The notes beneath the pieces were generated by a model. The model was not told where the DNA came from and ran no database searches. It saw nothing but the letters and a program-made list of their open reading frames with translations. Made by a program: the position numbers and the translations under genes. A stretch of DNA of 64,000 bases from NCBI GenBank assembly GCA_963796955.1, contig CAWCNJ010000009.1:30492-94491 (forward strand), read 5' to 3'. Below are positions 1,137 through 19,545 of this stretch, one piece after another. Every line of letters begins with the position of its first letter. Within the stretch, counting starts at the first letter, position 1. This DNA is from Endomicrobiales bacterium (GTDB lineage: Bacteria > Elusimicrobiota > Endomicrobiia > Endomicrobiales > JALOBY01).

Positions 1137-1326
1137 GCATTATCCTTTTGCGGTCCGGCCGGGGACCAATAGCGTATTTTGTCTATTGTAACAAATGGTT
1201 AGACAGGTATCAATGGACTTCCGTTGTTGACGAATAAAGAGCGTATTATGGGGACTCCGGCTATTCAATGACGAATGGCTAAGTGGTAGTATCAGAGAAA
1301 CATACATGGTCTTCAGGAGAATTCTT

Positions 1327-2558: not shown

Positions 2559-3292
2559 TGCGGGATCTCACCGGCAAAACGGCTCTGGTGACCGGCGGCT
2601 CAAAAAGGATAGGCCAGGCGATCTCTCTTGCGCTTGCGAAAGCCGGTGTCAATGTGGCTGTCCATTACCCGGAGCAAAGCGGAGAGACCGACGAAGTGAT
2701 GGCGTTGCTTGCTGCCTACCCGGTCTCTGCATGGACCGTTAAAGCTGATTTTCTTAACCCGCAGGAATACAAGACCCTTGTGGCGCGTACGGTCGAGCTT
2801 ACGGGACAGCTGGACATCGTGATCAACAACGCTTCTATCTTCAGCGGAGATACCCTTGATGAAATCGATCTCTCACAGGTAGTGCGCCACCTGGAAGTTA
2901 ATGCCTGGGTCCCGTTCGAGCTGATGCGCGCGTTCGCGCACCGCGCCCCCGAGGGCGGGCATGTGATCAACATACTCGATTCGAAGATCGCAGGCTATGA
3001 CTGGCCTCACATTTCATATATTCTCAGTAAACAGCAGCTATCGCTGCTTACCATGATGGCCGCCCTGAAATATGCTCCGCGGGTTTCCGTAAATGCGATA
3101 GCACCCGGCCTTATCCTGCCGCCGGCCGGGAAGGATGAAGCGTATCTGGATGGGCTTGCCGGGACCGTGCCGTTACAACGTCACGGCGGGCCGGATGACA
3201 TAACAGCGGCAGTCTTGTACCTGTTGAGAAACGATTTTATGACCGGCCAGGTCTTATTTGTTGACGGCGGTCGCCACTTGAGAACGGATTGA
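2558..3292 (+). CDS. Short-chain dehydrogenase/reductase, pteridine-reductase-like (FolM/PTR1-type)
   Basis: LVTGGSKRIGQAI, VINNAS and YILSK (YxxxK) SDR motifs. TAATG overlap with the upstream gene. Lies directly upstream of folB-folK-folE. Confidence 0.7.
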   Translation: MRDLTGKTALVTGGSKRIGQAISLALAKAGVNVAVHYPEQSGETDEVMALLAAYPVSAWTVKADFLNPQEYKTLVARTVELTGQLDIVINNASIFSGDTLDEIDLSQVVRHLEVNAWVPFELMRAFAHRAPEGGHVINILDSKIAGYDWPHISYILSKQQLSLLTMMAALKYAPRVSVNAIAPGLILPPAGKDEAYLDGLAGTVPLQRHGGPDDITAAVLYLLRNDFMTGQVLFVDGGRHLRTD

Positions 3293-3306
3293 ACGGGAAA
3301 GATGCC

Positions 3307-3669
3307 ATGGATCGGATCTTGATCAACGGTCTGCTCATCCGGTGTATCATCGGCGTGAGCAAAGAAGAGCGCAGAGACAAACAGGATGTGGTCGTAGATC
3401 TGTCGATCGGCACGGATACCCGTGCGGCTGCCAAGACCGACCGGCTCGCAGACGCCCTTGATTACCGGACCTTGAAAAAAAAGATACTGCGTCTGGGGGA
3501 AGCTTCCCGTTACCGGTTGCTGGAGTCCCTGACTGAAGCTATCGCCGCGCTCTGTATGAAAGAATCGAGGATCGAAAAAATAACGGTAAGAGCGGAAAAA
3601 CCGGGGGCGCTGCGCTTCGCTCGAAGCGTGGCGGTAGAAATAACCCGGCGCAGGCAGGACCTGCGGTGA
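3307..3669 (+). CDS. folB: Dihydroneopterin aldolase
   Basis: MDRILINGLLIRCIIGVSKEERRDKQDVVVDLSI...DYRTL is the typical FolB N-terminus and length. The track ORF starts at TTG 3289; I prefer ATG 3307. Confidence 0.8.
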   Translation: MDRILINGLLIRCIIGVSKEERRDKQDVVVDLSIGTDTRAAAKTDRLADALDYRTLKKKILRLGEASRYRLLESLTEAIAALCMKESRIEKITVRAEKPGALRFARSVAVEITRRRQDLR

Positions 3670-4148
3670 CTAAGGCATATATCGGTGTTGGCTCTAATAT
3701 TGAACCTGAACGGAACGTTGCCGCAGCAGTTCAGTTGCTTTCAGCGCGTTTGATGATCACCGGTATCTCTACTTTTTACCGCACTAAGGCGGAAGCGGGA
3801 AAACGGCAAAAAGATTATTATAACGGTGTCATAGCGGTGGAAACGGAACTGCCGCCGAAAGAGCTAAAATATGAAGTGCTGCGGGCGACCGAAAAACGTT
3901 TAGGTCGTAAGAGAACAAAAGATAAATTCCGTTCGCGAACCATCGATCTGGATCTGTTGGCCTACGGAGGGTTACGGCTGCGATCAAGGGAACTCACTCT
4001 GCCTGATCCGGATATTCGGCGGCGTCCCTATCTTGCCGCAGGCATTGCCGAATTGAACGGCGTCCTGCACCCATTAGCGAAATACACTGAATCTCTGCGG
4101 GAGAAAATACAAAAATGGAACCGGATCCCACAAAAATCGAAGGGTTAG
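3666..4148 (+). CDS. folK: HPPK (6-hydroxymethyl-dihydropterin pyrophosphokinase), divergent paralogue 1
   Basis: AYIGVGSNIEPE...FYRT...YYNGVIAVET...RTIDLDLL...LTLPDPDIRRRPYL. HPPK motif order is kept, but the His of the usual PHP motif is Asp. GTGA overlap with the folB stop. Confidence 0.7.
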   Translation: MTKAYIGVGSNIEPERNVAAAVQLLSARLMITGISTFYRTKAEAGKRQKDYYNGVIAVETELPPKELKYEVLRATEKRLGRKRTKDKFRSRTIDLDLLAYGGLRLRSRELTLPDPDIRRRPYLAAGIAELNGVLHPLAKYTESLREKIQKWNRIPQKSKG

Positions 4149-5551: not shown

Positions 5552-7477
5552 ATGCGCTGGAAATATTTTATCCCAACAGTTATTCTGGTAGCTCTCGTTC
5601 TCATATTTTGCGTTTTCTTTATGGATGCAATGATCCGGAAGATAATGATCTCGTCCGCGCAAATGATATTCGGGGCAAAGGTAGAGATCAGTTCCGTCAA
5701 AACCCGTTTCAGGGATATGTCTATCACCGTCTCGGAGCTGGCGGTAGCAAACCGCAAGGAACCGATGAAAAATCTGTTCCAAAGCTCATCGATCCATTTT
5801 TCCGTCAGCCCGCTGCCGCTGCTGACAAAAAAGGTCATTATCAATGAGATGTCGGTGGACGGCATCGCCTGGGGCACGAAACGTGCTTCATCAGGCGTAT
5901 TGCCGCCGCGCAAAGAAAGGAAATACGCAAAACTGATAAAAAGATCCACCGGCAAAGGCATTATGGGAAAATTGATGGGCAAAGTCTCTGCCAAAGGCAC
6001 GGAAGAATTCCATCAGCTGCCGGCCGTCGAGTCCTACAAAAACATTCAGCAGCTTGGTTCTCTTGCAACAGGCAAGGCGGTCGACGCCTCGGATCTCTCT
6101 TCGCTTAAAGCGATCGATACTATGCACAAAGAGATCGGGGAAAAATATGCCCGGTATGCCGTACAGGCGAGTTCTCTGACGGATACCGGCAAAACCATTC
6201 AGCAGGCGCAGGACACGATAAACGCGCTGTCGAAGGCAAAGATCAATTCCCTGGAAGATCTGAAGGCACTGCAGCCAAAGCTTGACGCCGCCAATGCCGC
6301 CAAAACAAAGATAAGCGAAAATATCAAAGAGTTGCAAAGCCTTCAGGCCAAAGCGCAGACCGATATCGGTGATGAAAAACAGTTGCTGCAAAAGATCCAG
6401 GAATCTAAAGATGCCGATTACCGCGCCCTGATGGATAAATTAAAGCTGCCCTCGGCCTCATTCGGCGCGATATCGCAGTCGTTGTTCGGCCCCATGTGGG
6501 TAGGACGTATTGAAACGCTCCTGCACTATATTGAACTGTCACGCAACACAATGCCTTCGCGTGCAAAAACGGAGCAGCGGCATGTGCAGACGCGTCTGAG
6601 AGGGCGTGACGTCAGCTTCCCCGTGGAACACCAACTGCCCGGCCTGCTGATCCGCGTCATACGGCTCACCGGCACGACAGGCGGTCCCGGCAAAGAGGGC
6701 ACGCCGATGGATTTCAAAGGCGAGATCACCACCGTTACCTCGGATCCGGTGCTGGCCGGGATCCCGACAAAAGCAGTGATCTATGGTACGCAGGGCCTCA
6801 AGATCCTTCAGGCGAATGTTGTGATCGATCACACCGGTGAGACCCCATCCGAACAGGCAGATATAACATATGCTGGTATCACCGCAAAAGAAATGTCTCT
6901 ACCGCAAAGCGAGTACCTGCCGGATTTTGGGCGAGGCTCCGGAAAAGTAGTCACCCGGTTTAAAATGACGGGCGATACTATCGATGCGACCGTCGATCTG
7001 TCTGTATCGGGCCTCGGCGCGCCAACCGCTGCGGCCGGCAACCCCGCAACGGCTTCCCTGGTAACAGCGCTTTGGGCCGGCATAAGCACTCTCAACGTGC
7101 AGGGCCGTTTAACGGGTACCGCGGATAATATCAAAATGGCGGTCTCTTCCGACATCGATAGTGCGCTATCCGGCCGCCTGGCAAAGGTTTTTGGCGGCCA
7201 GGTAAAAGACGCCCAGCAAAAAGTACGGGGCCAGATAGACGCGCTGACCAACGCTAAACAACAGGCGGTTCTCGGCGACCTTGCTTCAAAAAAGAGCGCT
7301 CTTGGCTCTATCTTTACCGACAAACAAAAAAAACTGCAGGATAAATCAGGTGAGCTTTCATCTCTGGAAGGTGCAAATAAAAACGCGCTGCAAAACCGGG
7401 CCGATACCGAGACAAAGAAACAGGAAGAAGAGCTGAGGAAAAAAGCCGGCGAACAGTTGAAGGGACTGTTCAAATAA
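5552..7477 (+). CDS. N-terminally anchored AsmA-like / TIGR03545-like protein with a long central coiled coil
   Basis: TM helix YFIPTVILVALVLIFCVFF; AsmA-like N-region; Ala/Lys/Gln-rich heptad-like centre and C-terminus. Confidence 0.45.
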   Translation: MRWKYFIPTVILVALVLIFCVFFMDAMIRKIMISSAQMIFGAKVEISSVKTRFRDMSITVSELAVANRKEPMKNLFQSSSIHFSVSPLPLLTKKVIINEMSVDGIAWGTKRASSGVLPPRKERKYAKLIKRSTGKGIMGKLMGKVSAKGTEEFHQLPAVESYKNIQQLGSLATGKAVDASDLSSLKAIDTMHKEIGEKYARYAVQASSLTDTGKTIQQAQDTINALSKAKINSLEDLKALQPKLDAANAAKTKISENIKELQSLQAKAQTDIGDEKQLLQKIQESKDADYRALMDKLKLPSASFGAISQSLFGPMWVGRIETLLHYIELSRNTMPSRAKTEQRHVQTRLRGRDVSFPVEHQLPGLLIRVIRLTGTTGGPGKEGTPMDFKGEITTVTSDPVLAGIPTKAVIYGTQGLKILQANVVIDHTGETPSEQADITYAGITAKEMSLPQSEYLPDFGRGSGKVVTRFKMTGDTIDATVDLSVSGLGAPTAAAGNPATASLVTALWAGISTLNVQGRLTGTADNIKMAVSSDIDSALSGRLAKVFGGQVKDAQQKVRGQIDALTNAKQQAVLGDLASKKSALGSIFTDKQKKLQDKSGELSSLEGANKNALQNRADTETKKQEEELRKKAGEQLKGLFK

Positions 7478-7480
7478 GAC

Positions 7481-8033
7481 TTATTCCTTGAACGCGAAAA
7501 CCGTGAATGTGTACAGCTCCGTCCCCTTGTCCTGCCAGGCATCCTGCGATAGACCTGCTTTCTGGCAGCAGAGTTCGTCCATAAAACATTTCTTTGTCGG
7601 CAGCTGTTCCCATACCTGCGGCAGGAATAAGCCGCTGCAATAGACCTTTCCGTACTACCACCCCATGATGTTCCGGTTCGATCTCATCCGCGTTCTTGAT
7701 CCTGGTAAGGGGGGAAAGCACTGATATTTCTATTTTTATATCCTTCAGCTCGCCGGCGGTCACAGGCTTGAACCGGTTGTCTTCCACAGCGGCGGCGATA
7801 GCAAGCTGGCTGACTGCCTGGTACAGCGGCAGCTGCGCGGCGGTCGTGCCGATGCAGCCTCGCAGGCAGTTGTCTTTGGTAAGCGTAACGAAAACGGCGG
7901 CGGGCTGCAGTAGTTCTTTTTCCGTTGTTGTAACGTTCGGCAGCGCGCCTGTCTTCAAATATGCGGCTATAGAATCCCGTGCTATTTTAAATAACTCTGT
8001 CTGATTTTTCTCGCCGATGGTAAAGTCGCCCAT
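7481..8033 (-). pseudogene. AMMECR1-domain protein, broken by a +1 frameshift near 7636-7645
   Basis: LRGCIGTT...NRFKPV...HHGVVVRKG in one frame. The conserved C-terminus SGLFLPQVWEQLPTKKCFMDELCCQKAGLSQDAWQDKGTELYTFTVFAFKE* lies in the +1 frame and ends at 7481. AAGGAGG lies 6 nt before ATG 8033. Confidence 0.75.
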
Positions 8034-8107
8034 GATGTGCCTCCTTGTCAAAGTATGTGTCATTATATCTCTATACAAACACTAATTCAATTATATACAA
8101 TAAGACT

Positions 8108-9010
8108 ATGGAAAATTTTGTGTCTCACGATCATAAGGAAGGCGGGTTGTCCGCTTCAAAATACTTTGGCGTTACATTGCTTAACGGCTTTATAACGCTG
8201 GTGGAAGCCGCGGCCGGCATCATGTCAGGCAGCCTCGCACTGCTTTCGGATGCAGTGCACAACCTGGGCGATACCGTCTCAATACTGTTCAGTTATTTCG
8301 CCTGGAAGATAGCGGGAAAAGAGCAGGACGCCCGACGGACGTACGGTTACAAACGGGCCGAGATCATAGCCGCGTTCGTTAACGCTTCGGTGCTGGTCGC
8401 GATATCTCTGTTCCTTGTTTTTGAGGCGGTGAAGCGTTTTCGCGCTCCGGAAACCATACACAGCGGCCTTATGATAGGCGCGGCGCTTTTCGGTTTGACG
8501 GCTAACTTCGTTTCCATGCTGTTACTGGAACAAGGCGCGCACGGCAATATGAACGTACGTTCCAGCTATCTGCACCTGCTTGGCGATACGGTCTCTTCCG
8601 TCGGCGTTCTGTGCGGCGGTATCGCGATACGGCTCTGGCAGGTTTTCTGGGTTGACCCGCTGGTCACTGTTTTGATCGCGGTATATATCATAAAGGAAAG
8701 CTGGGGCATCGTAAGAAACTCCGTACGGATCCTGATGCAGTCTTCCGCCGACCTTGATTATACCATGATGCGGCGGGATATCGAGGCTCTGCCGGAGGTA
8801 AAGAACATTCACCACGTGCATACCTGGATGGCCAACGAAGAAACCATTTATTTCGAAGCCCATATAGATATGGATGACTGTCTTCTTTCCAGGTCCTGCC
8901 TGGTCTCCCAGAAGATCGAGGAACTCCTCAAAAATAAATATGGCATCTCACACGCAACTCTCCAATTTGAAACCGACCGTTGTTCCAAGAAGGATTTTTT
9001 CAACAAGTAG
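8108..9010 (+). CDS. Cation diffusion facilitator (CzcD/ZitB-type) divalent metal efflux transporter
   Basis: SLALLSDAVHNLGD, YGYKRAEI and SYLHLLGDTVSS motifs; six TM helices; C-terminal cytoplasmic domain with HHVHTW. Confidence 0.85.
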   Translation: MENFVSHDHKEGGLSASKYFGVTLLNGFITLVEAAAGIMSGSLALLSDAVHNLGDTVSILFSYFAWKIAGKEQDARRTYGYKRAEIIAAFVNASVLVAISLFLVFEAVKRFRAPETIHSGLMIGAALFGLTANFVSMLLLEQGAHGNMNVRSSYLHLLGDTVSSVGVLCGGIAIRLWQVFWVDPLVTVLIAVYIIKESWGIVRNSVRILMQSSADLDYTMMRRDIEALPEVKNIHHVHTWMANEETIYFEAHIDMDDCLLSRSCLVSQKIEELLKNKYGISHATLQFETDRCSKKDFFNK

Positions 9011-9015
9011 TGTCT

Positions 9016-9768
9016 TTACACGCCTATGAGCATTTTCAACAGCTGGCCCTTAACGGATACCGCAAAGACCGGTACGCCTTCCGCCGCCTGTTTCGGCGTA
9101 TAGGTGCCGAACATTCTGTCCCAGACGGTAAATATAAAACCGAGGTTCCTGCCTGCCATGCCCCTGGCGCCGTGATGGATCCGGTGGTAATCAGGTGTTA
9201 TGAATAGTTTTTCAACGGGTCCCAGAGAGACATGTATGTTGGTGTGTATCCACAGATTGATCACGACGCCGAAAGAGAACGCGGCGCCGGTCTCAAGCGG
9301 CGACAGCTTTAACAGGAAATAGCCTATGAATATCTGCGGCAGGGAGAACAGGAATAAATGTGTCAGGCTGGTGCGCGATCCGGACAGCCACCATATCTGG
9401 CCGATAGAGTGGTGAAAGGCATGCGTTCTCCAAAGTAGTTTTTTATGCATTGCCCTGTGGACCCAGTAGAGCGAAAGGTCTGTAAGGATAATGGCTGAAA
9501 TAATTTTGAAGACCGGTGCGATCCCGGAAAGAAATTCCTGGTTCGTGAAAAATGGGGGAACCAGAGCCCGCAGAACGTTGAAGCTTACCACCCGCGCCGA
9601 TTCCCCGGCCGTTATCACAACGAACAGCGCGAGCAGGTTCAATTGCAAGTCTTGTTCTCTCACTACCGGCAGCCCGGGCCGGCGTCTTTCCATAACGTCC
9701 AGGGTAAGGACGGCGATAAGGAATGTTATCACCTGCATCAGCTGTTCCGGCGGTATAGTAATAGACAA
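9016..9768 (-). CDS. Fatty acid hydroxylase / sterol desaturase superfamily membrane protein
   Basis: His boxes HRAMH, HAFHH and HRIHH within a multi-TM protein. TTG start preceded by GGAGGA at 7 nt. Confidence 0.75.
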   Translation of the reverse strand: MSITIPPEQLMQVITFLIAVLTLDVMERRRPGLPVVREQDLQLNLLALFVVITAGESARVVSFNVLRALVPPFFTNQEFLSGIAPVFKIISAIILTDLSLYWVHRAMHKKLLWRTHAFHHSIGQIWWLSGSRTSLTHLFLFSLPQIFIGYFLLKLSPLETGAAFSFGVVINLWIHTNIHVSLGPVEKLFITPDYHRIHHGARGMAGRNLGFIFTVWDRMFGTYTPKQAAEGVPVFAVSVKGQLLKMLIGV

Positions 9769-9991
9769 TAGAGTGTCCTCCGTGGCACCTCTGTCGAGGC
9801 AGCGATTTTTTTAATATAATACATATCGTAAACTCTGTTAATGCGCTGATTCCCTCATATAATGGCTTTGTCGCCTGGTTTTCTGAATACAAAGTGGATA
9901 AAAGACAGTTATCGATGGAGTCAGCCCATCATGAGAGAACATCGTCTCAGCTATAATATCGATCGAAAGATCACCGGTTTTCCTGGAGACG

Positions 9992-11209
9992 ATGAACAAT
10001 ATGAGAGTGCTATTGATAGAAGATAATGCTGACGACGCACGGCTTGTGGCTGAATTGCTTAACGTCCGTTCTGAAATCGGTTTCAAACTTACGGTCTGCG
10101 AAACTCTCGGCGGGGGAATGGCGGAGCTTGCGGCGGGCCAGTTCGATGTCGTTATCTCGGACTTGAATTTGCCGGACAGCTCGGGTCTCGCCGGTATAGA
10201 GACGCTTGCGGTCGTCAACGCCGCCGTTCCGATAATCGTTCTGACAGGTAACAGCGATGAGACCCTGGGTATCCAGGCCCTGCAAAAAGGTGCCGCCGAT
10301 TATCTGGTAAAGGGCCAGGTCACCGCGAATTTGATAAGCCGCAGTATCAGATATGCCATCGAAAGAAAATATGAAACAATTAAGCTGATAGAGGCAAGCC
10401 GCATCGCCGACGAACGGGCAACCGCGCTTAAAGATCTTACCGATGACCTGGAAAATATCGTGGAACAAAGGACCTGTCAGCTGCTTAAAGCAAGCGCAGA
10501 GCTGGAGCGTTCCCGAAGGATGGCTGATGTCGGCCGCCTGGCTTCGACCATTTCACACGAGTTGCGCAATCCACTCGCGGCTATCAAGCTGGCGGCGTAT
10601 AACCTGCAGAGAAAAACGAACGACCCCTCGCTTATACCTCACCTGAACAATATCAATAAAAAGATCAATGAGGGCGATACTATCATTCAAAACCTTCTCA
10701 GTTTCGCCCATACCAGGACGGATAACTTCGAAAATGTTGTTCTCAATACTCTGCTGGAGGAATGCATCGCCAATGTCCATGGGAAATACCAGTCGCACCA
10801 AACGGTATTAAAAAAAGACGTCGGTGTCGGTTCGCATGATACTATCGAGGCCGATCCGGTGCAGCTGCGTATCATGCTCTCTAATATTATTGACAACGCT
10901 TTCCAGTCCCTGCCGGACCAGAAGGGGACGGTTTCTGTCGCTGCCGGCATAATGGGACCGTCGTACATCATCTCTATCTCCGACACAGGCGTGGGAATAG
11001 AACCGGAAAATATCGACAAAGTTTACGAGCCGTTCTACACGACAAAATCCAAAGGCACCGGACTCGGTCTTGCCGTCTGTAAGGATATTATCGAGAGCCA
11101 TCACGGTGCGATAGAACTTCGCAGCGAGCCTCATAAAGGGACCACGTTCATTGTCACACTGCCCGTCAGACAGCCGAAAGATCAAAAACACCTGCTTAAA
11201 AGTGAATGA
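9992..11209 (+). CDS. Hybrid sensor histidine kinase (N-terminal receiver + HisKA + HATPase_c)
   Basis: REC: VLLIEDN...DLNLPDSSG...K. H-box STISHELRNPLAAI. N/G boxes NIIDNAF, DTGVGI, GTGLGLAV. Confidence 0.85.
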   Translation: MNNMRVLLIEDNADDARLVAELLNVRSEIGFKLTVCETLGGGMAELAAGQFDVVISDLNLPDSSGLAGIETLAVVNAAVPIIVLTGNSDETLGIQALQKGAADYLVKGQVTANLISRSIRYAIERKYETIKLIEASRIADERATALKDLTDDLENIVEQRTCQLLKASAELERSRRMADVGRLASTISHELRNPLAAIKLAAYNLQRKTNDPSLIPHLNNINKKINEGDTIIQNLLSFAHTRTDNFENVVLNTLLEECIANVHGKYQSHQTVLKKDVGVGSHDTIEADPVQLRIMLSNIIDNAFQSLPDQKGTVSVAAGIMGPSYIISISDTGVGIEPENIDKVYEPFYTTKSKGTGLGLAVCKDIIESHHGAIELRSEPHKGTTFIVTLPVRQPKDQKHLLKSE

Positions 11210-11322
11210 AGTCAGCCGAAAACGGATTATTGATATTTCGCTCATTAAATGAATTGTATATCATGTAAACATCAGCCGCTAATTTAATAATTTGAGTTGT
11301 GCGATAATTACGGGAGGGTATT

Positions 11323-12093
11323 GTGCCAGACAAGATACTATTAGTAGATGATGACCAGGTTTCTCGGGAAGAAATGAAGTGCTGTTTAGAAGAATATGAC
11401 GTGATAGAGGCTAAGAACGGTCAGGAGGCGCTCAGCATTTTGAACAAGCCTAACGAAATAGACCTGATGATACTGGACATACGGATGCCGGGTCTCGCGG
11501 GAACGGAAGTGCTGAAGATAATCAAGAAAAAAGAGTCGGCGCCGATCGTTATAATGTTGACGGGATTCAGTTCAACCGATACTGCCGTCGAATCGTTGAG
11601 GGGCCAGGCGGATGAGTACCTGGAAAAACCGATCGATATTGAAAAACTTAAAGCCGTCGTGGCGAAGCTGCTGGAGGCGAAAAAATACAAGAGCGACGAT
11701 ACGGGCGCTGCCGACGTAAATCAGAAGATCGACCGGGTTAAACGGTTCATAGAAAGAAATTGCCTTAAACGGGTGTCCCTGGAAGATGCGGCGAAAACCG
11801 TCGGCTTCAGCCCTAAATATCTGAGCCGGGTTTTCAGCGAAGTGGCCGGGGAAGGGTTCATGGATTACCGTCTTAAGGTTAAGACCAATAAGGCAAAAGA
11901 GCTGCTGGCGGTCAAGGGGTATACCATAAGCGATATCTCCGACAAGCTTGGGTTCATGAACCCGGAATCTTTCATGAGGATATTCAAGAAGATCACCGGC
12001 CTGACACCCACGCAGTACCGCGAGCCTGAGATCAAGCGGCTTGCCAGGCGCGCCCCGGTCGCGAAAAAAGCGGGACGGAAAAAGAAAAAATAG
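11323..12093 (+). CDS. Response regulator with AraC-type HTH output domain and a Lys-rich C-terminal tail
   Basis: REC: ILLVDDD...LDIRMPG...K. AraC HTH: VSLEDAAKTVGFSPKYLSRVF...GYTISDISDKLGFMNPESFMRIFKKITGLTPTQYR. GTG start with GGGAGG upstream. Confidence 0.85.
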   Translation: MPDKILLVDDDQVSREEMKCCLEEYDVIEAKNGQEALSILNKPNEIDLMILDIRMPGLAGTEVLKIIKKKESAPIVIMLTGFSSTDTAVESLRGQADEYLEKPIDIEKLKAVVAKLLEAKKYKSDDTGAADVNQKIDRVKRFIERNCLKRVSLEDAAKTVGFSPKYLSRVFSEVAGEGFMDYRLKVKTNKAKELLAVKGYTISDISDKLGFMNPESFMRIFKKITGLTPTQYREPEIKRLARRAPVAKKAGRKKKK

Positions 12094-12096
12094 AAC

Positions 12097-13281
12097 ATGC
12101 CTGCCCACGAACTATCACTCCAGGATTCTGCCACGACTGAAGAACAATGCCAGCAACAGGCCGCGCTCCTGCAGGAGCAGGCCAGGATGCTGGAACAGGC
12201 TCAGATTATTGTCTGGAATGATACGGACGGGATCACCCAGTGGACACGCGGCGCCGAGCTGCTCTATGGGTGGAGTAAGTCGGAAGCCGTCGGTAAAAAA
12301 CCGTTCGAGCTGCTGAAAACGATGACACCCAGGCCTGTTGAAGACATTATGTCCGATGTGGTAAGCGACCAGCGTTGGGAAGGCGAGCTGTTGAACACGA
12401 GAAAAGACGGTCACCAGATAACGGTCGCCAGTTGCTGGGCGCTGAACCGCGACCGGGCCGGGCGGACCACGATCATCGAGTCAGACAGCGATATAACCAG
12501 GCTGAAAGTGTATGAACTTGCCTTGAGCAGGGACAAGGATGCTTTCGAAAAAATGGTCGCCGACAAAACGCGCGAACTGGTTTCAACACAGATGGAACTG
12601 GAGCGCACCCGGCGGCTTTCGGATATAGGCACGCTGGCCGCGACGGTGGCGCACGAATTAAGGAACCCTCTCGGGGTTATACGGACCGCGGTCTACAACA
12701 TCAAACGCAAGGCCCATAATCCGCTGCTGGACGGCCACATAGGCAACATCGAGAAGAAAATTCTGGAAGGCGATCAGATAATCAACAACCTGTTGGGCTA
12801 TTCCCGGATCAGAACGCCCCAGTACGAAAAGATAAAACTGTACGACGTTCTGGATGAATGCGTAAACATCGCCCGGGAACGTTTTGAGAAAAAACATATT
12901 CTTTTCATCAAGGATGCCGAATCCATACGGGAGCAGTTCATGGACGGCGATCATTTTCAGCTGCGTGAAGTGCTGAATAATATACTTGATAACGCGGGCC
13001 AGGCGGTCGAAGCCGGCAAGGGAGTTATCAAAGTTTCAGCGCATACCGATACTGCCGGCTGTATGATCCTGACGATTACCGACAACGGTTCCGGTATCGA
13101 CGGGGCGGACATCGGCAGGTTGTTCGAGCCGTTCTTTACGAGAAAGTCCAAAGGCACGGGTCTTGGCCTGACGGTTTGCAAAGAGATGATAAGCCTGCAC
13201 CACGGGGATATAAGAATAGGCAGTGAACCAAGCAAGGGGACGACCGTAACTATTACGTTGCCATTGGAGAGAGCGACATGA
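12097..13281 (+). CDS. PAS-domain sensor histidine kinase
   Basis: PAS-like WTRGAELLYGWSKSEAVGKKPFELL...WEGELLNTRKDG. H-box VAHELRNPLGVI. NILDNAG, DNGSGI, GTGLGLTV. Confidence 0.85.
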   Translation: MPAHELSLQDSATTEEQCQQQAALLQEQARMLEQAQIIVWNDTDGITQWTRGAELLYGWSKSEAVGKKPFELLKTMTPRPVEDIMSDVVSDQRWEGELLNTRKDGHQITVASCWALNRDRAGRTTIIESDSDITRLKVYELALSRDKDAFEKMVADKTRELVSTQMELERTRRLSDIGTLAATVAHELRNPLGVIRTAVYNIKRKAHNPLLDGHIGNIEKKILEGDQIINNLLGYSRIRTPQYEKIKLYDVLDECVNIARERFEKKHILFIKDAESIREQFMDGDHFQLREVLNNILDNAGQAVEAGKGVIKVSAHTDTAGCMILTITDNGSGIDGADIGRLFEPFFTRKSKGTGLGLTVCKEMISLHHGDIRIGSEPSKGTTVTITLPLERAT

Positions 13282-13667
13282 GCAAAAAGAAACTGCTTAT
13301 TATTGATGATGATGTGGAAATGTGCGAAGAGATCTCGGAGATACTGCGTGATGAAGGGTATGATGTAAGCACTGTTCACGACGGGATCGAGGGCAGGGAA
13401 CTTTTGACCCGCGAGCCTTTTGACCTGGTGCTGCTGGACATAAAGATACCCGGTATGAACGGTTTTGAGGTCTTGAGGTCTATCCGTGATGAAAATATAA
13501 ACGTCAAGGTCATTGTGCTTTCCGGCCGGCCCATGGTCAAAGAACTGAGCGGCCAGGCGTCTGACTACGACGATGAAGAAATGGTCCTGAAAAAAGCCGA
13601 CAGTGTCATGGGCAAACCCTACGATATTACGAAGGTTCTGGAGACAACGAAAAAACTGTTATCCTGA
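13278..13667 (+). CDS. Stand-alone CheY-like receiver protein
   Basis: LLIIDDD...LLDIKIPGMNG...VLSG...KP. ATGA overlap with the upstream kinase gene. Confidence 0.85.
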   Translation: MSKKKLLIIDDDVEMCEEISEILRDEGYDVSTVHDGIEGRELLTREPFDLVLLDIKIPGMNGFEVLRSIRDENINVKVIVLSGRPMVKELSGQASDYDDEEMVLKKADSVMGKPYDITKVLETTKKLLS

Positions 13668-13841
13668 GGTTCATATACAAAAGCGTACCTTTTGCCTCCG
13701 ACCATGAACAACGGCTGGGGGCATTATTGTCGGCAGAGCGTCGGACACCGGAGAATAGTCAGGAAAAAACAGAACCAGCCGATGCTTTCCTGCCGACGGT
13801 TAAGTTAGAATCTGGTTGCACATCCATCCCAGGGGGGAGAA

Positions 13842-14213
13842 ATGAAAAAAAAGCGGATCTTGATCGTTGATGATGATGAAACGTTCCTTGAAGAGCTCAA
13901 CAACACCATGCAGATGTGCGGCTACGATACGATAACCCGCAACAGCGGGAAAACGGTCGTTAAGGACGCCGATGAAAAGAAGCCGGACGTGATCTTGCTG
14001 GATATGAAGATAAACGGGAAAAGCGGTTTCCAGATAGCGGATGACCTGAAACATTTTCCTTCCACATCCAATATCCCGATCGTCGCGATGACCGGGATCT
14101 TCACGGAGCGGCTGCACCGGACTTTTATGAAGGGCCTCGGGATCGATGAATGCGTCCTGAAACCTTTCAATCCCCTGGATATAATCTCGAAAATAGAATT
14201 CTTAACAAAGTAG
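13842..14213 (+). CDS. Stand-alone CheY-like receiver protein
   Basis: ILIVDDD...LLDMKINGKSG...AMTG...KPF. GGGGGAGA SD. Confidence 0.85.
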   Translation: MKKKRILIVDDDETFLEELNNTMQMCGYDTITRNSGKTVVKDADEKKPDVILLDMKINGKSGFQIADDLKHFPSTSNIPIVAMTGIFTERLHRTFMKGLGIDECVLKPFNPLDIISKIEFLTK

Positions 14214-14226
14214 CAATGGAGAGCCT

Positions 14227-14676
14227 ATGAAGCAGACAGTGATGATCATTGATGATGATAAGGTATTGCTGAGCGAGCTTACTGAGGCGCTGGAAGCGAA
14301 CGGTTTTCTGGTACGGCCATTTTCTGACGGTAAAACGGCGCTCGCCGCGGCTCCCAGGATCATGCCGGATATCATTTTGCTGGATCTGAAGATGGATAAG
14401 GTGAGCGGATTTCAGGTGGCAGACAAGCTGAATTGTTCACCTAAGACGGAGAACATACCGATCATAGCCATGACCGGGTATTTCACCCAGGATGAATATT
14501 CACTGATAACCAGGATCTGCGGCATGAAGAAATGCATCAACAAACCGTTTAAAATGGAAGATATTATCGCGGAAGTATCGAGGATACTCGCGGCCCGGGA
14601 TCAAAAAACCGAGCCGGCAAAAAGCGGAGGTGCACAGTATGAAAAAAGCGAAGAGCTCAACAAAATCGAAAAGTAA
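14227..14676 (+). CDS. Stand-alone CheY-like receiver protein with a short acidic/basic C-terminal extension
   Basis: VMIIDDD...LLDLKMDKVSG...AMTG...KPF. Paralogous to the preceding receiver. Confidence 0.85.
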   Translation: MKQTVMIIDDDKVLLSELTEALEANGFLVRPFSDGKTALAAAPRIMPDIILLDLKMDKVSGFQVADKLNCSPKTENIPIIAMTGYFTQDEYSLITRICGMKKCINKPFKMEDIIAEVSRILAARDQKTEPAKSGGAQYEKSEELNKIEK

Positions 14677-14833
14677 AAAACAGCACGCTGAGCAGGGTGA
14701 TAAACTTTCCTGCGAGGAGTGCGGTATGACGGTTATCGTAGAGGATTGCGGAGATAACGAAGACGTGTGCGGCGTCAGCTGCTGCGGTGAGCCCATGCAG
14801 GTGTGTTCCGACGAAGAGGAGCAGGTGGAATAA
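14639..14833 (+). CDS. Small (64 aa) desulforedoxin-like Cys-rich protein with a Lys-rich N-terminal tail
   Basis: GGAGG lies 8 nt before ATG 14639. KLSCEECGMTVIVEDCGDNEDVCGVSCCGEPMQV follows the desulforedoxin/Dfx N-terminal pattern CxxCG..V.V...CCGE.M. The start lies inside the 3' end of the upstream receiver gene. Confidence 0.5.
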   Translation: MKKAKSSTKSKSKKQHAEQGDKLSCEECGMTVIVEDCGDNEDVCGVSCCGEPMQVCSDEEEQVE

Positions 14834-14840
14834 TGAGATC

Positions 14841-14861
14841 CAGTCCCGTTGAGCGGGACTG
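14841..14861 (+). promoter_or_regulatory. Intercistronic stem-loop (8-bp perfect stem, 5-nt loop) between the two small Cys-rich ORFs
   Basis: CAGTCCCG-ttgag-CGGGACTG. No T-tract follows. It ends 2 nt before the GGGGAGA SD of the next ORF. Confidence 0.4.
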
Positions 14862-14875
14862 CCGGGGAGACTAAC

Positions 14876-15061
14876 ATGCAGATCAATATGCACAGGCAGG
14901 ATTTGGATATCGGGTCAAATGTAGAGGAGCTGGAGGTCAGCGCCAGCTGCAGCAATTGCAGCCTGGCTTCCATTGAAGGCGCCTGCAATAAATGTGTCAA
15001 TTGCAGCGAACCGGTCGTAGAGCGTAAACCCAGACGGCCTAAAAAATCGATGTGGCAGTAA
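14876..15061 (+). CDS. Small (61 aa) five-Cys protein/peptide with an Arg/Lys-rich C-terminus
   Basis: GGGGAGA lies 5 nt before ATG 14876. MQINMHRQDLDIGSNVEELEVSASCSNCSLASIEGACNKCVNCSEPVVERKPRRPKKSMWQ, i.e. CxxC...CxxCxxC. Confidence 0.45.
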   Translation: MQINMHRQDLDIGSNVEELEVSASCSNCSLASIEGACNKCVNCSEPVVERKPRRPKKSMWQ

Positions 15062-15083
15062 GCCGTACATGTACGGGGGAAAA

Positions 15084-15293
15084 ATGAACATAAAAATGGG
15101 TGTTTGGATCGATAAGGAGAAAGCCGTGATCACCTCGATCTATGACAAAAACGAAGATGTGCAGTTCGTTGAATCAAAAGCAGGCGATCAGGCCGCGTCC
15201 TATTATAACAACGTTATCGAAAAATTGCGCAAGGCTGAGATGGTGCACATTTTCGGTCCGACAGAACCCAAAACGAGCTGGTTAAATATATGA
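15084..15293 (+). CDS. Hypothetical small protein; possibly extended to 15334 by a missing A in the run 15270-15273
   Basis: GGGGGA SD before ATG 15084. MNIKMGVWIDKEKAVITS...MVHIFGPTEPK. The -1 frame continues NELVKYMKISGLGERISAVV*. Confidence 0.4.
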   Translation: MNIKMGVWIDKEKAVITSIYDKNEDVQFVESKAGDQAASYYNNVIEKLRKAEMVHIFGPTEPKTSWLNI

Positions 15294-15347
15294 AGATATC
15301 AGGCCTCGGCGAGCGTATTTCGGCGGTCGTTTAAGTCAAGACCTGAA

Positions 15348-16775
15348 ATGCGCGTTCTCATCATCAGCTCCAACAGGAACAAAAAACCGGTACCGGTGAT
15401 GCCTTACGGCGCCTGCATGATAGCAGACGCGGCAAGGCGGGCGGGACACGAGGTGCGGTTCCTGGACCTGATGTTCGAGCGCGACGTTGCCGAGGCATTA
15501 GCGTTCGCGTGCAAGTGGAAGCCCGATGTAGCAGGTATATCGCTGAGAAATATCGATAACAATGATATGTACGATCCTGTGGTGTACACGCAGGAACTTG
15601 AGCCGATGATCAACTTTATACGGAGCGCCACGCAGGCCTCAATAGTGATAGGCGGGGCGGCGTGCGGAGTAATGCCTCTTCCTTTACTACGCAGCACCAA
15701 AGCCGATTATCTTATTGCAGGTAACGGCGAGGAAAGCTTTATAGCGCTGCTGGAAAATATAGAATGCAATATCAGACCGGGAAATATCCCCGGTCTAGCC
15801 TGGAATGACGGCGGTAGCGTGCGTTTGGCTCCGGTAGCTTTTAAACCCTATACTGAGTGTGTAGCCCCTGATTTCGCGCGCTGGGTAGATATACGGTCTT
15901 ACCGGGCAGCGAATGTTCCGGCGCCGTTGCAGAGCAAGCGCGGCTGTCCGCTCAACTGTATCTATTGCACGTACAGCCTTTGCGAGGGCAAAGAGTACCG
16001 GCTGGCCTCGCCGGAAAGCGTGGTCATCGCGGTAGAGCGTCTGTTGGACCAGGGGTTCACCGATGTCGATTTTGTGGACAGTGTTTTTAATGCGCCGTAC
16101 GAACACGCGTTGGAAATCTGCGCCGTTCTTTCAAAACATTTCAAGGGCAGGGCCAGGTTCCATACCATGGAACTGAGCCCGCACCATTTGGATGATACGT
16201 TACTTTCCGCCATGACAGACGCCGGTTTTTCTTCGGTCGGTATAACCGCGGAAAGCGCCTCTGATACCGTGCTGCGCAACCTCGGTAAACCGTATACGGT
16301 CAAAGAGATCACGGAGGCGGCACAGTGCGTGCGCAGGCATACGCTGCCCTGTATGTGGATATTCATGCTGGGCGGCCCCGGCGAGACCGCGGAAAGCGTG
16401 CGGGAAACATTCACGTTCGCCAGAGAGCAGGTGCGCCGCAGCGACAGTGTTTTCTTCAACGCGGGTATCCGGATATACCCGGGGACAGTGCTGGAAAAGA
16501 TAGCCCGGCGCGAAGGCGTGCTCACTGTTCCGGCGGAAGAAATGCTTAACCCGGTGTCGTATTGTTCGCCGGGTTTGAACAGGACCTGGCTGGAAGCCGC
16601 CCTGCGCAGACAGGTGCTGCTGCATAAGAATTTTATCGACCCGGATTCCTTCAACATCCCTTTTCTCCCCGCGTTGTCGAAGCTAGCTTCCTTTCTGGGG
16701 ATCCGTTATCCGTTGTGGAAATATACAGGCCAATTACGCATGCTGCTAGGGCGAATACCGGGGGTTTCAACGTGA
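15348..16775 (+). CDS. Cobalamin-binding-domain (class B) radical SAM enzyme
   Basis: N-terminal Rossmann-like region (VLIISSN...PYGACMIADAARRAGHEVRFLD...DVAGISL...IVIGGAA), then the radical SAM motif CPLNCIYC and a TIM-barrel-like body. Confidence 0.75.
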   Translation: MRVLIISSNRNKKPVPVMPYGACMIADAARRAGHEVRFLDLMFERDVAEALAFACKWKPDVAGISLRNIDNNDMYDPVVYTQELEPMINFIRSATQASIVIGGAACGVMPLPLLRSTKADYLIAGNGEESFIALLENIECNIRPGNIPGLAWNDGGSVRLAPVAFKPYTECVAPDFARWVDIRSYRAANVPAPLQSKRGCPLNCIYCTYSLCEGKEYRLASPESVVIAVERLLDQGFTDVDFVDSVFNAPYEHALEICAVLSKHFKGRARFHTMELSPHHLDDTLLSAMTDAGFSSVGITAESASDTVLRNLGKPYTVKEITEAAQCVRRHTLPCMWIFMLGGPGETAESVRETFTFAREQVRRSDSVFFNAGIRIYPGTVLEKIARREGVLTVPAEEMLNPVSYCSPGLNRTWLEAALRRQVLLHKNFIDPDSFNIPFLPALSKLASFLGIRYPLWKYTGQLRMLLGRIPGVST

Positions 16776-17872
16776 AAAATGTCACCGCTTCATCCGTGCA
16801 GGCAAATATGGCTTCGCTTGCCGTGGCCCTGCCGGAGTTAAGTATCAACCAGCGCGAGGCTTTCGGTTTTATTAAAAAGAATTATGAAAAGCGGCTTTCA
16901 AGCCGCGGCATGAAGGTGCTGGAAAAAGTTTTATCACATCCCGGGATAAAAAAAAGATATCTGGCTGTTGATGGCGGCCTTGAGACGATCGTTGATGAGG
17001 ATCCGGACGTTCGGGTAGGCCGCTTCACGCGCCACGCGGTCGCGCTGTCAACACGGGCGGCTGCCTCGGCGCTCAAACGGGCGGGGCTCACCCCCGAGGA
17101 TGTTTCAGCCCTGGTCATCAATACCTGCACCGGATATATTTGTCCGGGGATCTCCTCTTACGTCGCAGAAAACCTCGGGATCTCACCGTCCGCCCGCACG
17201 TTCGATATGGTCGGCAGCGGCTGCGGCGGGGCGCTGCCCAACATCTTCATGAGCCGTTCCCTTGCCCAGGCGGCTGAGGGCGCCGTGGTCAGTGTTTCCG
17301 TTGAGATCAGTTCGGCCGCTTTCCAGATGGGGGAAGACCCGGGATTACTGGTCTCCAACTCTATTTTCGGCGACGGCGCGGCCGCCTCTGTGTGGACGAC
17401 GGAACCGGAACGGCTTTCGGTGCTGGATTACGAATCTTTACTGGTGCCGGAATTTCGTGAGCATATACGTTTTGTGCACCGCAGCGGACAATTGCATAAC
17501 CAGCTGTCCATGAAATTACCCGGCTTAACGGGCGGGCCGGTTGCCGCCCTGGTGCACCGGCTGCTTGAGCGCAATGGCCTGTCTATGAAAGACATAGATC
17601 ATTGGGCGATCCATCCCGGCGGGGAAAAAATTATCAATGCCGTAAAGGCGGGACTGGGTTTGAGCGAAGAACAGTTATCGGCTACCAGGGGCGTTCTTTC
17701 TGATTACGGAAATATGTCGTCGCCGAGCGTTCTGTTCATTCTTGAGAGGCTGGTGCGCGGGCCCATGCGCGCCGGCGACCTTTGCCTTATGATAGCTTTT
17801 GGCGCGGGTTTTTCAGCGTATGCCTGCCTGTTAAAAGCAGGCAGCCGGTTCCCGGCGGCACGTAAGCAGTAA
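16773..17872 (+). CDS. Type III polyketide synthase (chalcone/stilbene synthase superfamily)
   Basis: Triad contexts MVGSGCGGALP (Cys), WAIHPGGEKII (His) and YGNMSSPSVLFIL (Asn). The GTG start overlaps the radical SAM stop (GTGA). Alternative starts are ATG 16808 or 16715. Confidence 0.8.
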
Positions 17873-17908
17873 TGATTTGTTGTTAACCAAAGCAGAAAGG
17901 AGAAATGT

Positions 17909-18349
17909 ATGTGTATTATTCCAATATGTATGTCATTGGTAGGTATGGTGGTGCTGGTTACGCTGGGGTATCTTGCGTTGTGGACGTCAAGCCACGAAAA
18001 CACGGCTAAAGGCCTTGCCGGCTTCGGTAGGGTCATGGCCATAATCCTGTTCGTGTTCGCCGGGTTGGCATTGGTAGGCGGCGCGACCGCGAGCCACATG
18101 TGCATGTGGTATATGGGCAGGGACGGCGGTGCCTGCGTGATGGGCAAATGCATGCCGGGCCATCATATGGGCGCCATGATGAAAGAGAATGAAGAAATGG
18201 AAGAGCATGAGCACATGGGTATGGCGGGCGGCAACGAGCCCATGACCAAAGATAATATGGTTGCGCACCTTAAAATGATGCGGGACCAGAACCCGGACGT
18301 GTTCAATCAAAGCATGACCGAGCTGAACAAACCTCAAAACAAGAAATGA
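17909..18349 (+). CDS. Two-TM membrane protein with a Met/His/Cys-rich soluble tail (putative Cu/soft-metal binding)
   Basis: AAAGGAGAA SD. SHMCMWYMGRDGGACVMGKCMPGHHMGAMMKENEEMEEHEHMGMAGG. Confidence 0.5.
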   Translation: MCIIPICMSLVGMVVLVTLGYLALWTSSHENTAKGLAGFGRVMAIILFVFAGLALVGGATASHMCMWYMGRDGGACVMGKCMPGHHMGAMMKENEEMEEHEHMGMAGGNEPMTKDNMVAHLKMMRDQNPDVFNQSMTELNKPQNKK

Positions 18350-18397
18350 CGTTCCGGGCATTGTGCTCCGTTTGGGAGCGCGACATTGGTGGTTATT

Positions 18398-18700
18398 ATG
18401 GAAAATCGAAGAAAAGCGCTTAGAAAACCGCTGGTAAGCCCGGTCATGATCCTGGCGGCGGCGTTACGAAAGAAAATAGCAGAGGGGTTTGTGACCAACA
18501 TTAACGACGGCGGCCTGGGTATCGTAAGCCCGAAAGACCTGCCTGTTGGCGACACGTTGCTCTTCAACATCAACATGCCCAACGGCTGGCACCTGGACCT
18601 GTTCGGAAAGATCGTGCACGCAAGGCACGGTCCAACCCTGAACGCCTACGGCGCCGTTTTCGACCCCGGCCAGGCCACGTTCATCTTCAACTTGTTTTAA
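18398..18700 (+). CDS. Stand-alone PilZ-domain protein (c-di-GMP receptor-like)
   Basis: RRKALR (RxxxR) near the N-terminus and NINDGGLGI (D/NxSxxG-like). About 100 aa, beta-barrel-type sequence. Confidence 0.6.
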   Translation: MENRRKALRKPLVSPVMILAAALRKKIAEGFVTNINDGGLGIVSPKDLPVGDTLLFNINMPNGWHLDLFGKIVHARHGPTLNAYGAVFDPGQATFIFNLF

Positions 18701-18738
18701 TTCTGTCCAGGCCATAACTGCCGAAAACAGAGCAAGAA

Positions 18739-18774
18739 CCGCACTGCGGGGCAACCCCCCGCCTGCGGTTTTTT
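18739..18774 (+). terminator. Rho-independent terminator closing the receiver / rSAM / PKS / PilZ block
   Basis: CCGCA-ct-GCGGGG caacc CCCCGC-c-TGCGG followed by TTTTTT. Confidence 0.7.
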
Positions 18775-18792
18775 GTTTGCAAAATATCAGAG

Positions 18793-18821
18793 TTGAAAAC
18801 CCTTCGAATAATAGATACAAT
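18793..18821 (+). promoter_or_regulatory. Sigma-70-like promoter for the DUF3800 gene
   Basis: TTGAAA - 17 nt - TACAAT, about 80 nt upstream of the GTG start. Confidence 0.45.
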
Positions 18822-18903
18822 TACTTGTCGTATCTGTCCCGCTATTGGGAACAGTACGGAAGGTCTTTAGTTTTTAAGTTAAGGCTTCGATCGGGGAGCG
18901 TTT

Positions 18904-19545
18904 GTGGGTTATATATACATGGATGAAAGCGGGGACTTGGGGTTTGATTTCTCCAAGGATGGTACGTCTGATTGTTTTGTAATTACATTTCTTTTTGTTA
19001 AAGATAAAAGGCCTGTTGAGAAGATTGTTAAAAGAGTCTTCGCAATGTTCTCTAAAAAACAGATAAGGCATCATTCAGGGGTGCTGCATTGTTACAAGGA
19101 GCATCCAAAAACAAGACAGCGAGTTTTAAAAGAGTTAGCGGGCAAAGATGTTAGTGTGATCTCGATTTATCTTAATAAGCATAAGGTCTATACGCAGCTG
19201 AAAGATGAAAAGCAAGTGCTCTATAATTATGTGGTGAATATCCTTCTTGACAGGGTATTTTCAAAGAAATTGTTAGGCAATTCCGGTGATATTGTGCTCG
19301 TAGCTTCCAGAAGGGAAACGAATAAGTTCTTGAATGAGAATTTCAAACAGTATCTTGAAAGGCAGGTTAAATTAAACCACAACGAACACATCAAAATAGA
19401 GGTAAAGACGCCATCGGAGGAAAAATGTTTACAGGTGGTAGATTTTGCATGCTGGGCTATTTTTAGAAAGAGACAATGGAACGACAATTCTTATTACGAG
19501 CTTATTAGAACAAAAGTTGTCGAAGAAAACCCATTATTCGCTTAG
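18904..19545 (+). CDS. DUF3800-family protein
   Basis: MGYIYMDESGDLGFDF... is the typical DUF3800 N-terminus, with a conserved-looking C-terminal LQVVDFACWAIFR. GGGGAG SD before GTG. Visibly AT-richer than the flanks. Confidence 0.65.
   Translation: MGYIYMDESGDLGFDFSKDGTSDCFVITFLFVKDKRPVEKIVKRVFAMFSKKQIRHHSGVLHCYKEHPKTRQRVLKELAGKDVSVISIYLNKHKVYTQLKDEKQVLYNYVVNILLDRVFSKKLLGNSGDIVLVASRRETNKFLNENFKQYLERQVKLNHNEHIKIEVKTPSEEKCLQVVDFACWAIFRKRQWNDNSYYELIRTKVVEENPLFA

Follow-up and report, generated by a model that had tools for sequence, protein, structure and literature searches.

A cobalamin-type radical SAM enzyme and a type III polyketide synthase form a two-gene module conserved across bacterial phyla

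A 64,000-nucleotide stretch of the genome of an Endomicrobiales bacterium (contig CAWCNJ010000009.1, positions 30,492 to 94,491; here called the window) carries on its plus strand a gene for a cobalamin-type (class B) radical S-adenosylmethionine (SAM) enzyme, followed directly by a gene for a type III polyketide synthase (PKS). The radical SAM (rSAM) enzyme is encoded by an open reading frame (ORF) of 475 amino acids at 15348 to 16775, as recognized by Pfam, NCBIfam and an AlphaFold (AF2) model. An N-terminal, Rossmann-type B12-binding domain occupies residues 17 to 134 (15396 to 15749; PF02310, E = 8e-13), and the radical SAM core, which includes a D-S-V-F-N motif, occupies residues 198 to 357 (15939 to 16418; PF04055, E = 4e-20). 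Within the core lies CPLNCIYC (15945 to 15968), a CX3CX2C motif formed by C200, C204 and C207 that is predicted to bind the radical SAM [4Fe-4S] cluster. The PKS gene extends from 16772 to 17872 on the same strand and contains codons for a putative catalytic triad, namely Cys139 (GSGCGGA, 17222 to 17224), His269 (HWAIHPGGEK, 17612 to 17614) and Asn302 (YGNMSSP, 17711 to 17713), numbered from an ATG at 16808.

The PKS ORF lies in a different frame from the rSAM ORF and is open from 16715 to 17872, its longest form opening at a GTG at 16715. A second GTG (16772 to 16774) overlaps the rSAM stop codon TGA (16773 to 16775), so that the candidate start and the stop share the 4 nucleotides GTGA at 16772 to 16775. 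An earlier reading of this DNA, made from the sequence alone, had noticed this overlap and placed it one base too far downstream, at 16773 to 16776. Translation from GTG 16772 yields 366 amino acids, and a public annotation of this DNA uses this start; translation from ATG 16808 yields 354 amino acids, the length of a homologue that is 93% identical (P0121). In an alignment of PKS homologues (A2), 14 of 15 extend N terminally past the residue aligned with ATG 16808, and only P0121 starts there. Across 70 related loci, the candidate PKS start overlaps the rSAM stop by 4 nucleotides in 30, by 1 nucleotide in 3 and by 8 nucleotides in 2. The start is therefore ambiguous, with GTG 16772 favored because of the N-terminal extensions of the homologues and the recurrent 4-nucleotide overlap, and translational coupling of the two genes through GTGA is plausible. 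Promoter and terminator scans of positions 13600 to 19000 gave counts at background, with no terminator between the two genes. No riboswitch or other RNA element was detected in the whole window at the Rfam gathering threshold, and no tRNAs were found in it. The guanine-plus-cytosine content of the pair (55 to 57%, compared with about 52% for the window) was not striking.

Both domains of the rSAM protein exceeded their Pfam gathering cut-offs, B12-binding with 48.7 bits against 32.1 and Radical_SAM with 73.1 bits against 29.5. These were the only two domains that the Pfam scan returned, with no SPASM domain or RiPP recognition element (RRE), and the sequence lacks a DxHxxG motif. Cysteines C200, C204 and C207 were invariant in 18 homologues (alignment A1). 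Homologues numbered 1,277 at E ≤ 0.001; the best 120 were about 50% identical, were almost all 474 to 477 amino acids long and were named from Brocadia, Nitrospirota, Desulfuromonadales, Dissulfurispiraceae, Endomicrobiales and Elusimicrobiota.

NCBIfam holds no model for this PKS-paired rSAM family. The top match, over the full length, was to TIGR04072, a "lipid biosynthesis B12-binding/radical SAM protein," with 291 bits and a cut-off of 360 that was not reached. BzaD of the anaerobic pathway to the lower ligand of B12 (TIGR04385), which is the closest family with an assigned function, matched residues 17 to 405 with 150 bits (cut-off, 450), and the TsrM model TIGR04428 scored 107 bits (cut-off, 500). 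Membership in any of the three families was rejected, as every score fell below its cut-off. Like the enzyme described here, TIGR04072 proteins occur in anammox bacteria and other anaerobes; however, they sit in ladderane-type clusters with amxACP, FabZ, FabF and phytoene-desaturase-like genes, whereas here the partner is a type III PKS, and no fatty acid synthase genes were found beside the pair in the window or among the recurrent neighbors of its relatives. Likewise, no bza-like genes lie nearby, and the cluster-ligating glutamate of TsrM is absent.

A structural model of the rSAM enzyme was built by AF2 from 18 homologues, with a predicted local distance difference test score of 90.5 and a predicted template modeling (TM) score of 0.90. 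Its best structural match was TsrM (TM score, 0.86; E = 1e-30), a tryptophan 2-C-methyltransferase (6wte/6wtf), while MgmA, AprD4, CysS, OxsB and TokK matched at TM scores of 0.64 to 0.75 only. The enzyme is only 22 to 23% identical to TsrM, with which it shares the fold, the N-terminal B12 domain and an arginine; no thiopeptide genes accompany it. This arginine, R67, belongs to an S-x-R-N-I-D-N-N-D motif that is invariant in the B12 domain, is itself invariant in 18 homologues and aligned with TsrM R69 in a HMMER alignment to 6wte. In TsrM, R69 is situated under the lower face of the cobalamin, and E273 serves as ligand to the fourth cluster iron, a contact thought to preclude radical chemistry (2026 review, PMC12931638). 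In the enzyme studied here, the position of E273 is taken by the invariant V246, within a shared D-S-x-F-N motif, and Y209 aligned with TsrM E236. The sequence and the model thus point to a TsrM-like fold and a lower-face arginine combined with a free cluster iron, and therefore canonical SAM binding is expected. We conclude that ORF 15348-16775 is a B12-binding radical SAM enzyme, for which binding and use of cobalamin are predicted. The sequence-only reading had reached the same assignment from motifs that were all located in the ORF, and it had made the assignment depend on a B12-binding domain at the N terminus, which is where this domain was found.

Several comparisons identified the second ORF as a type III PKS. 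Against Pfam, the protein scored 52.4 bits for Chal_sti_synt_N and 70.1 bits for Chal_sti_synt_C (gathering cut-off, 27 each) and also passed the gathering scores of FAE1_CUT1_RppA and ACP_syn_III_C. A phmmer search of PDB sequences returned at its top the type III PKSs Ectocarpus PKS1 (4b0n), Mycobacterium tuberculosis PKS18 and PKS11 and rice Os07g0271500, with E values of 1e-35 to 1e-30. The remainder of the 60 best matches were plant chalcone/stilbene-type synthases and two 3-ketoacyl-coenzyme A (CoA) synthase entries, and among the 60 best matches of a profile of 16 family members stood type III PKS entries alone, matched over their full length. PKS18, PKS11 and Ectocarpus PKS1 use long-chain acyl starters. 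Homologues of the PKS numbered 2,224 at E ≤ 0.001. The triad C139, H269 and N302 was invariant in alignment A2 and is shared with the solved enzymes, to which identity is well below 40%. Unlike those enzymes, the family has signatures of its own, NTCTGYICPG and GQLHNQLS. The former, invariant at residues 105 to 114 of the 354-amino-acid form, brings two extra cysteines, C107 and C112, close to the region of the substrate pocket.

An alternative identity for this protein is that of a FabH/KAS III-type enzyme, which initiates fatty acid synthesis. Its ACP_syn_III_C score was marginally above that of Chal_sti_synt_C (72.5 versus 70.1 bits), and the triad is necessary but not discriminating, because FabH has the same Cys-His-Asn triad. 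However, the ACP_syn_III N-terminal domain gave no match in the Pfam scan, while Chal_sti_synt_N and FAE1_CUT1_RppA passed their cut-offs. In NCBIfam, the type III PKS model DpgA scored 179 bits versus 80 to 88 bits for FabH models, whose cut-offs are 249 to 292. FabH was rejected because it was absent from the 60 best PDB matches listed in both the single-sequence and the profile search. The second ORF is therefore a true type III PKS, with condensation activity predicted from sequence, in agreement with the reading that had been based on the contexts GSGCGGALP, WAIHPGGEKII and YGNMSSPSVLF.

Conservation of the pair was assessed in one genome per GTDB species. Relatives of the rSAM enzyme were present in at least 575 species genomes, and the best 80 rSAM loci were taken for analysis of neighborhoods. 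These loci came from Planctomycetota (Brocadiaceae, Scalinduaceae and others, including Brocadiia), Nitrospirota (including Thermodesulfovibrionales, Dissulfurispiraceae and Sulfobium), Desulfobacterota (including Desulfobulbaceae, Desulfuromonadaceae, Geobacter, Syntrophobacteraceae and Deferrimicrobium), Elusimicrobiota and Acidobacteriota. The argininosuccinate synthase encoded in the window is 75 to 81% identical to proteins named from Endomicrobiales/Elusimicrobia MAGs, which places this DNA in an uncultivated member of the Elusimicrobiota. The closest GTDB homologues of both proteins were in Elusimicrobiales, with identities of 53% for the rSAM enzyme and 62% for the PKS. Five loci had too little downstream sequence, leaving 75 that could be evaluated by tblastn. 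A PKS gene lay immediately downstream of the rSAM gene on the same strand in 64 of these and was convergent with it in 1. In the reverse direction, PKS homologues on long contigs were picked regardless of rSAM, and all three had an rSAM gene directly upstream.

Pairwise distances of the two proteins were correlated across 69 loci (Mantel r = 0.76), a value that none of 999 permutations reached. Flanking genes shared nothing between Brocadia, a Nitrospirota metagenome-assembled genome (MAG) and another MAG, and when 937 neighborhood ORFs were clustered, the only conserved families were the rSAM enzyme and the PKS. Together, these data demonstrate that the adjacency is not due to chance and that the two genes are a real, co-inherited module present in at least five phyla. 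The module has probably been exchanged horizontally, as a unit, among anaerobic bacteria. The sequence-only reading had tied its case for a functional pair to adjacency being kept in relatives, and on this point it was upheld.

Additional genes recur beside the pair in some lineages. In three Geobacter/Desulfuromonadales-type loci (L049, L078 and L088), the gene order is a FAD_binding_3 hydroxylase, a class I methyltransferase, the rSAM gene and the PKS gene. The top NCBIfam matches of the FAD_binding_3 protein were aromatic monooxygenases (among them the UbiH/UbiF family, aklavinone 12-hydroxylase and 3-hydroxyphenylpropionate hydroxylase), and the methyltransferase matched PRK06202 and, weakly, UbiE. 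Eleven loci carry the methyltransferase, and six carry the hydroxylase. WrbA-like flavin mononucleotide (FMN) reductases occur in 11 loci. A Pfam census of the 146 nearest neighbors counted 9 cupredoxin-like proteins, the commonest class, followed by FMN_red (6), methyltransferase (6), DUF5714 (4) and DUF2147 (4). In a group of Nitrospirota-like loci, the pair adjoins a heme-copper oxidase operon (COX1-3, COX4_pro and SCO1/SenC; L086 at 1 to 4138 and the upstream regions of L048, L050, L075 and L082), and a DUF5714 protein follows the pair (the downstream group comprising L041, L044, L075, L082 and L086). Genes for ferritin/Dps-like, WrbA-like and superoxide dismutase proteins lie downstream of the pair in one Desulfobulbaceae locus. 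Each of these associations is infrequent, yet all are redox or oxygen related; the window carries none of the accessory genes seen in the relatives.

A second, unrelated B12 rSAM gene, for 471 amino acids, lies convergently, on the minus strand, just downstream of the PKS gene in Desulfuromonadaceae-type loci (L032, 2903 to 4315; L036, 8738 to 10150; L088, 7206 to 8621). Its product best matched BchE (143 bits) and HpnR in NCBIfam and is only about 22 to 25% identical to the main rSAM family. In L085, the rSAM gene has no adjacent PKS gene and is followed (7340 to 11297) by an O-methyltransferase at the level of UbiG (146 bits; cut-off, 103), a FAD_binding_4 protein of 619 amino acids and an NAD_binding_4 protein resembling fatty acyl reductases. 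This setting, of a tailoring or lipid kind, is distinct from that of the paired rSAM genes. L055 and L066 carry the FAD hydroxylase, the methyltransferase and the rSAM gene but no PKS gene within about 4.5 to 6 kb downstream; L054 carries the methyltransferase and the rSAM gene, likewise with no PKS gene in the available downstream sequence. The PKS of these three genomes may be encoded elsewhere.

Known type III PKS operons offer a frame for these arrangements. The srsABC operon of Streptomyces griseus, hidABC of picocyanobacteria, the planctomycetal mtr-fdo-t3pks operon and pkq of mycobacteria and Streptomyces each combine a methyltransferase and a flavin adenine dinucleotide (FAD) oxidoreductase with the PKS; the sequence-only reading had described such loci in the same terms, consistent with the literature. 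The resemblance to the present loci lies in a short operon with the type III PKS as last gene. In L049, L078 and L088 the likeness goes further, since the partners are the same, a class I methyltransferase and a FAD-dependent aromatic hydroxylase, with the rSAM gene inserted before the PKS gene. The product class is likely shared as well, namely a phenolic lipid or an alkylquinone. Unlike the known operons, the present loci have a cobalamin rSAM enzyme immediately upstream as the conserved partner, their hosts are mainly anaerobes, and most of them, including the window, are without the methyltransferase and the hydroxylase. The kind of operon, alkylresorcinol or polyketide-quinone, is thus already known, while a cobalamin rSAM enzyme as conserved partner appears unprecedented for type III PKSs. 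A full-text literature search, with most subscription journals outside its reach, turned up no description of a B12 rSAM enzyme partnered with a type III PKS, in line with the earlier statement that no equivalent had been characterized.

From the domain architectures, catalytic motifs, pairing, co-divergence and accessory genes of relatives, we infer a substrate, reaction, product and role as follows. It appears about as probable as its converse that the PKS makes a phenol of the alkylresorcinol or pyrone type, that the rSAM enzyme C-methylates it and that a membrane phenolic lipid results. The PKS would be primed with an acyl-CoA or acyl-acyl carrier protein (ACP), most likely a fatty acyl group, would extend it with malonyl-CoA and would cyclize the chain into an alkylresorcinol-, alkylpyrone- or acylphloroglucinol-type phenol. 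The rSAM enzyme would then tailor this scaffold, most likely by methylating a ring carbon of the electron-rich arene, with SAM as the methyl source and methylcobalamin as the intermediate carrier. If so, it would resemble TsrM in methylating an electron-rich aromatic carbon. BzaD has been described as a likely Csp2 methylase reminiscent of TsrM, with predicted C-methylation of an oxygen-substituted arene (PMC12931638).

In known pathways the ring C-methyl has other origins: it derives from a methylmalonyl-CoA extender in polyketide quinones, and a probable C-methyltransferase installs it on the alkylresorcinol of Gimesia maris. In the proposed scheme, a B12 rSAM enzyme would supply it, in place of a methylmalonyl-CoA extender or a class I C-methyltransferase. 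In some lineages, the class I methyltransferase and the UbiH-like FAD hydroxylase may act on the same scaffold, and the outcome there would be a methyl- or methoxy-substituted alkyl-hydroquinone or quinone comparable to those of the srsABC, hidABC and mycobacterial polyketide-quinone pathways. Because the rSAM enzyme coexists with both the methyltransferase and the hydroxylase in the four-gene loci, it would add a third function and replace neither. The pathway would end in a phenolic lipid of the membrane that functions in redox processes or as an antioxidant. The sequence-only reading had proposed a radical-modified resorcinol or pyrone, possibly a lipid; this stays conjectural as to the product and appears strengthened by the hydroxylase and methyltransferase that stand beside the same pair in relatives.

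A number of observations weigh against ring methylation of a phenolic lipid. The rSAM/PKS family has no experimentally characterized member, and a mapping of PKS active-site residues to chalcone synthase (CHS), PKS18 and ArsB was too ambiguous to predict the starter or the cyclization mode. As to the CHS gatekeepers Phe215 and Phe265, the Phe of the FGDG motif is present as F187, and the invariant N231 of GQLHNQLS presumably stands, by motif alignment, at the position of Phe265, where bacterial type III PKSs often deviate. In the 64-kb window, neither a methyltransferase nor a hydroxylase gene was found, and in 10 of the 75 evaluable loci the rSAM gene is without an adjacent PKS gene. Since V246 and Y209 replace the glutamates of TsrM, and with them its cluster ligand, the enzyme is not expected to be of the TsrM-type, nonradical kind, and it may carry out ordinary 5'-deoxyadenosyl (5'-dA) radical chemistry of another sort. 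Class B rSAM enzymes also catalyze reactions other than methylation, as exemplified by BchE, OxsB and HpnJ. Finally, the best match of the enzyme, the lipid biosynthesis/ladderane-cluster family TIGR04072, could point to chemistry on the alkyl chain rather than the ring.

Among the alternatives, the most probable keeps the PKS scaffold and assigns the rSAM enzyme a nonmethylating reaction on it, either an oxygen-independent hydroxylation or oxidation toward a hydroquinone or quinone, as in BchE-like chemistry, or a C-C coupling or cyclization. We regard this as unlikely. Absence of the TsrM glutamate ligand makes 5'-dA radicals probable, and BchE itself provides a precedent within class B. Most hosts are strict anaerobes, where quinone formation by flavin monooxygenases is ruled out, and genes for WrbA-like quinone reductases, cupredoxins and heme-copper oxidases are found repeatedly in the vicinity of the pair. 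However, BzaD and TsrM, the closest characterized relatives, are methylases. The FAD hydroxylase coexists with the rSAM enzyme in L049, L078 and L088, so that it has not simply been replaced, and the separate BchE-like rSAM gene beside the operon in L032, L036 and L088 encodes a better candidate for such a reaction.

Rather improbable is a second alternative, in which the rSAM enzyme precedes the PKS in the pathway or modifies the alkyl chain, through methyl branching, cyclization or coupling, and the PKS caps the chain with a phenolic or pyrone head to give an unusual membrane lipid. The similarity of the PKS to users of long-chain acyl groups is consistent with this scheme, as is the L085 locus, in which the rSAM gene stands beside FAD_binding_4 and fatty-acyl-reductase-like genes. 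The TIGR04072 match would also fit, but it falls short of the family cut-off. Moreover, neither the window nor any of the 80 loci has genes for type II fatty acid synthase, ACP, FabZ or FabF alongside the pair, the accessory genes that recur are of the ring-tailoring kind (UbiH-, UbiG- and UbiE-like), and the fold is closest to that of an arene methylase. The FabH/KAS III identity of the second ORF is highly improbable in view of the matches given above.

The genes that surround the pair in the window differ from those of its relatives. Directly upstream on the same strand, a signaling block (9992 to 14676) encodes two histidine-kinase-like proteins, an AraC-type response regulator and three single-domain response regulators; the kinases were assigned from HisKA/HATPase-type sequences, and Response_reg was confirmed for 13842 to 14213 and 14227 to 14676. 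Two small, acidic, Cys-rich ORFs of 67 and 70 amino acids with several CxxC-like pairs (14630 to 14833 and 14849 to 15061) lie between the response regulators and the rSAM gene. A second public assembly of this organism, L005, has gene calls for both; neither had a significant family match (one was faintly desulforedoxin-like, E = 0.18). An ORF at 15084 to 15334 is truncated by one A fewer in a homopolymer near 15270 (CCCAAAAC versus CCCAAAAAC in L005), which may be a genuine frameshift or an artifact of sequencing or assembly. In L005 this ORF encodes 83 amino acids, with no Pfam match, and ends 13 nucleotides before the rSAM start.

Downstream, 36 nucleotides after the PKS gene, lies a gene for a 146-amino-acid protein (17909 to 18349), in which two hydrophobic helices are predicted and whose tail is rich in His and Met (MPGHHMGAMM...HEHMGMAGG), a composition that suggests metal binding, perhaps of Cu; it had no family match and is not conserved in the other loci. 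Genes for a PilZ-domain protein (18386 to 18700) and a DUF3800 protein (18904 to 19545) follow. That the rSAM enzyme matures the small Cys-rich peptides encoded at 14630 to 15061, as a ribosomally synthesized and posttranslationally modified peptide (RiPP) maturase with the PKS as an unrelated neighbor, is scarcely credible and was rejected: B12 rSAM enzymes are common as RiPP methylases and the two Cys-rich ORFs and the 83-amino-acid ORF do lie directly upstream, but such ORFs accompany the rSAM gene in none of the other loci, where the PKS alone is conserved, the ORFs lack a significant Pfam match, RiPP rSAM models scored far below their cut-offs (e.g., 55 versus 282 bits), and the Pfam scan showed neither a SPASM domain nor an RRE in the enzyme.

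Beyond the methylation proposal, the pair could be central to a pathway that yields a polyketide-derived quinone or hydroquinone without oxygen, with ring functionalization by the rSAM enzyme as a reaction new for its class on a type III PKS product. This is a speculative extension, and we consider it improbable. If it were true, the compound would serve anaerobes, among them anammox bacteria, Nitrospirota, Desulfobacterota and Elusimicrobiota, as an electron carrier in the membrane or as an antioxidant against oxygen stress. The module in general would represent the first link of cobalamin radical SAM chemistry with type III PKS products. Because the module consists of only two genes, it is directly testable by heterologous expression. 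Hosts of the rSAM relatives include anammox bacteria, sulfate and metal reducers and groundwater Elusimicrobiota, and since the pair is so widespread, its product could be common in anoxic habitats yet overlooked there, as a constituent of membranes, a redox carrier or a biomarker lipid.

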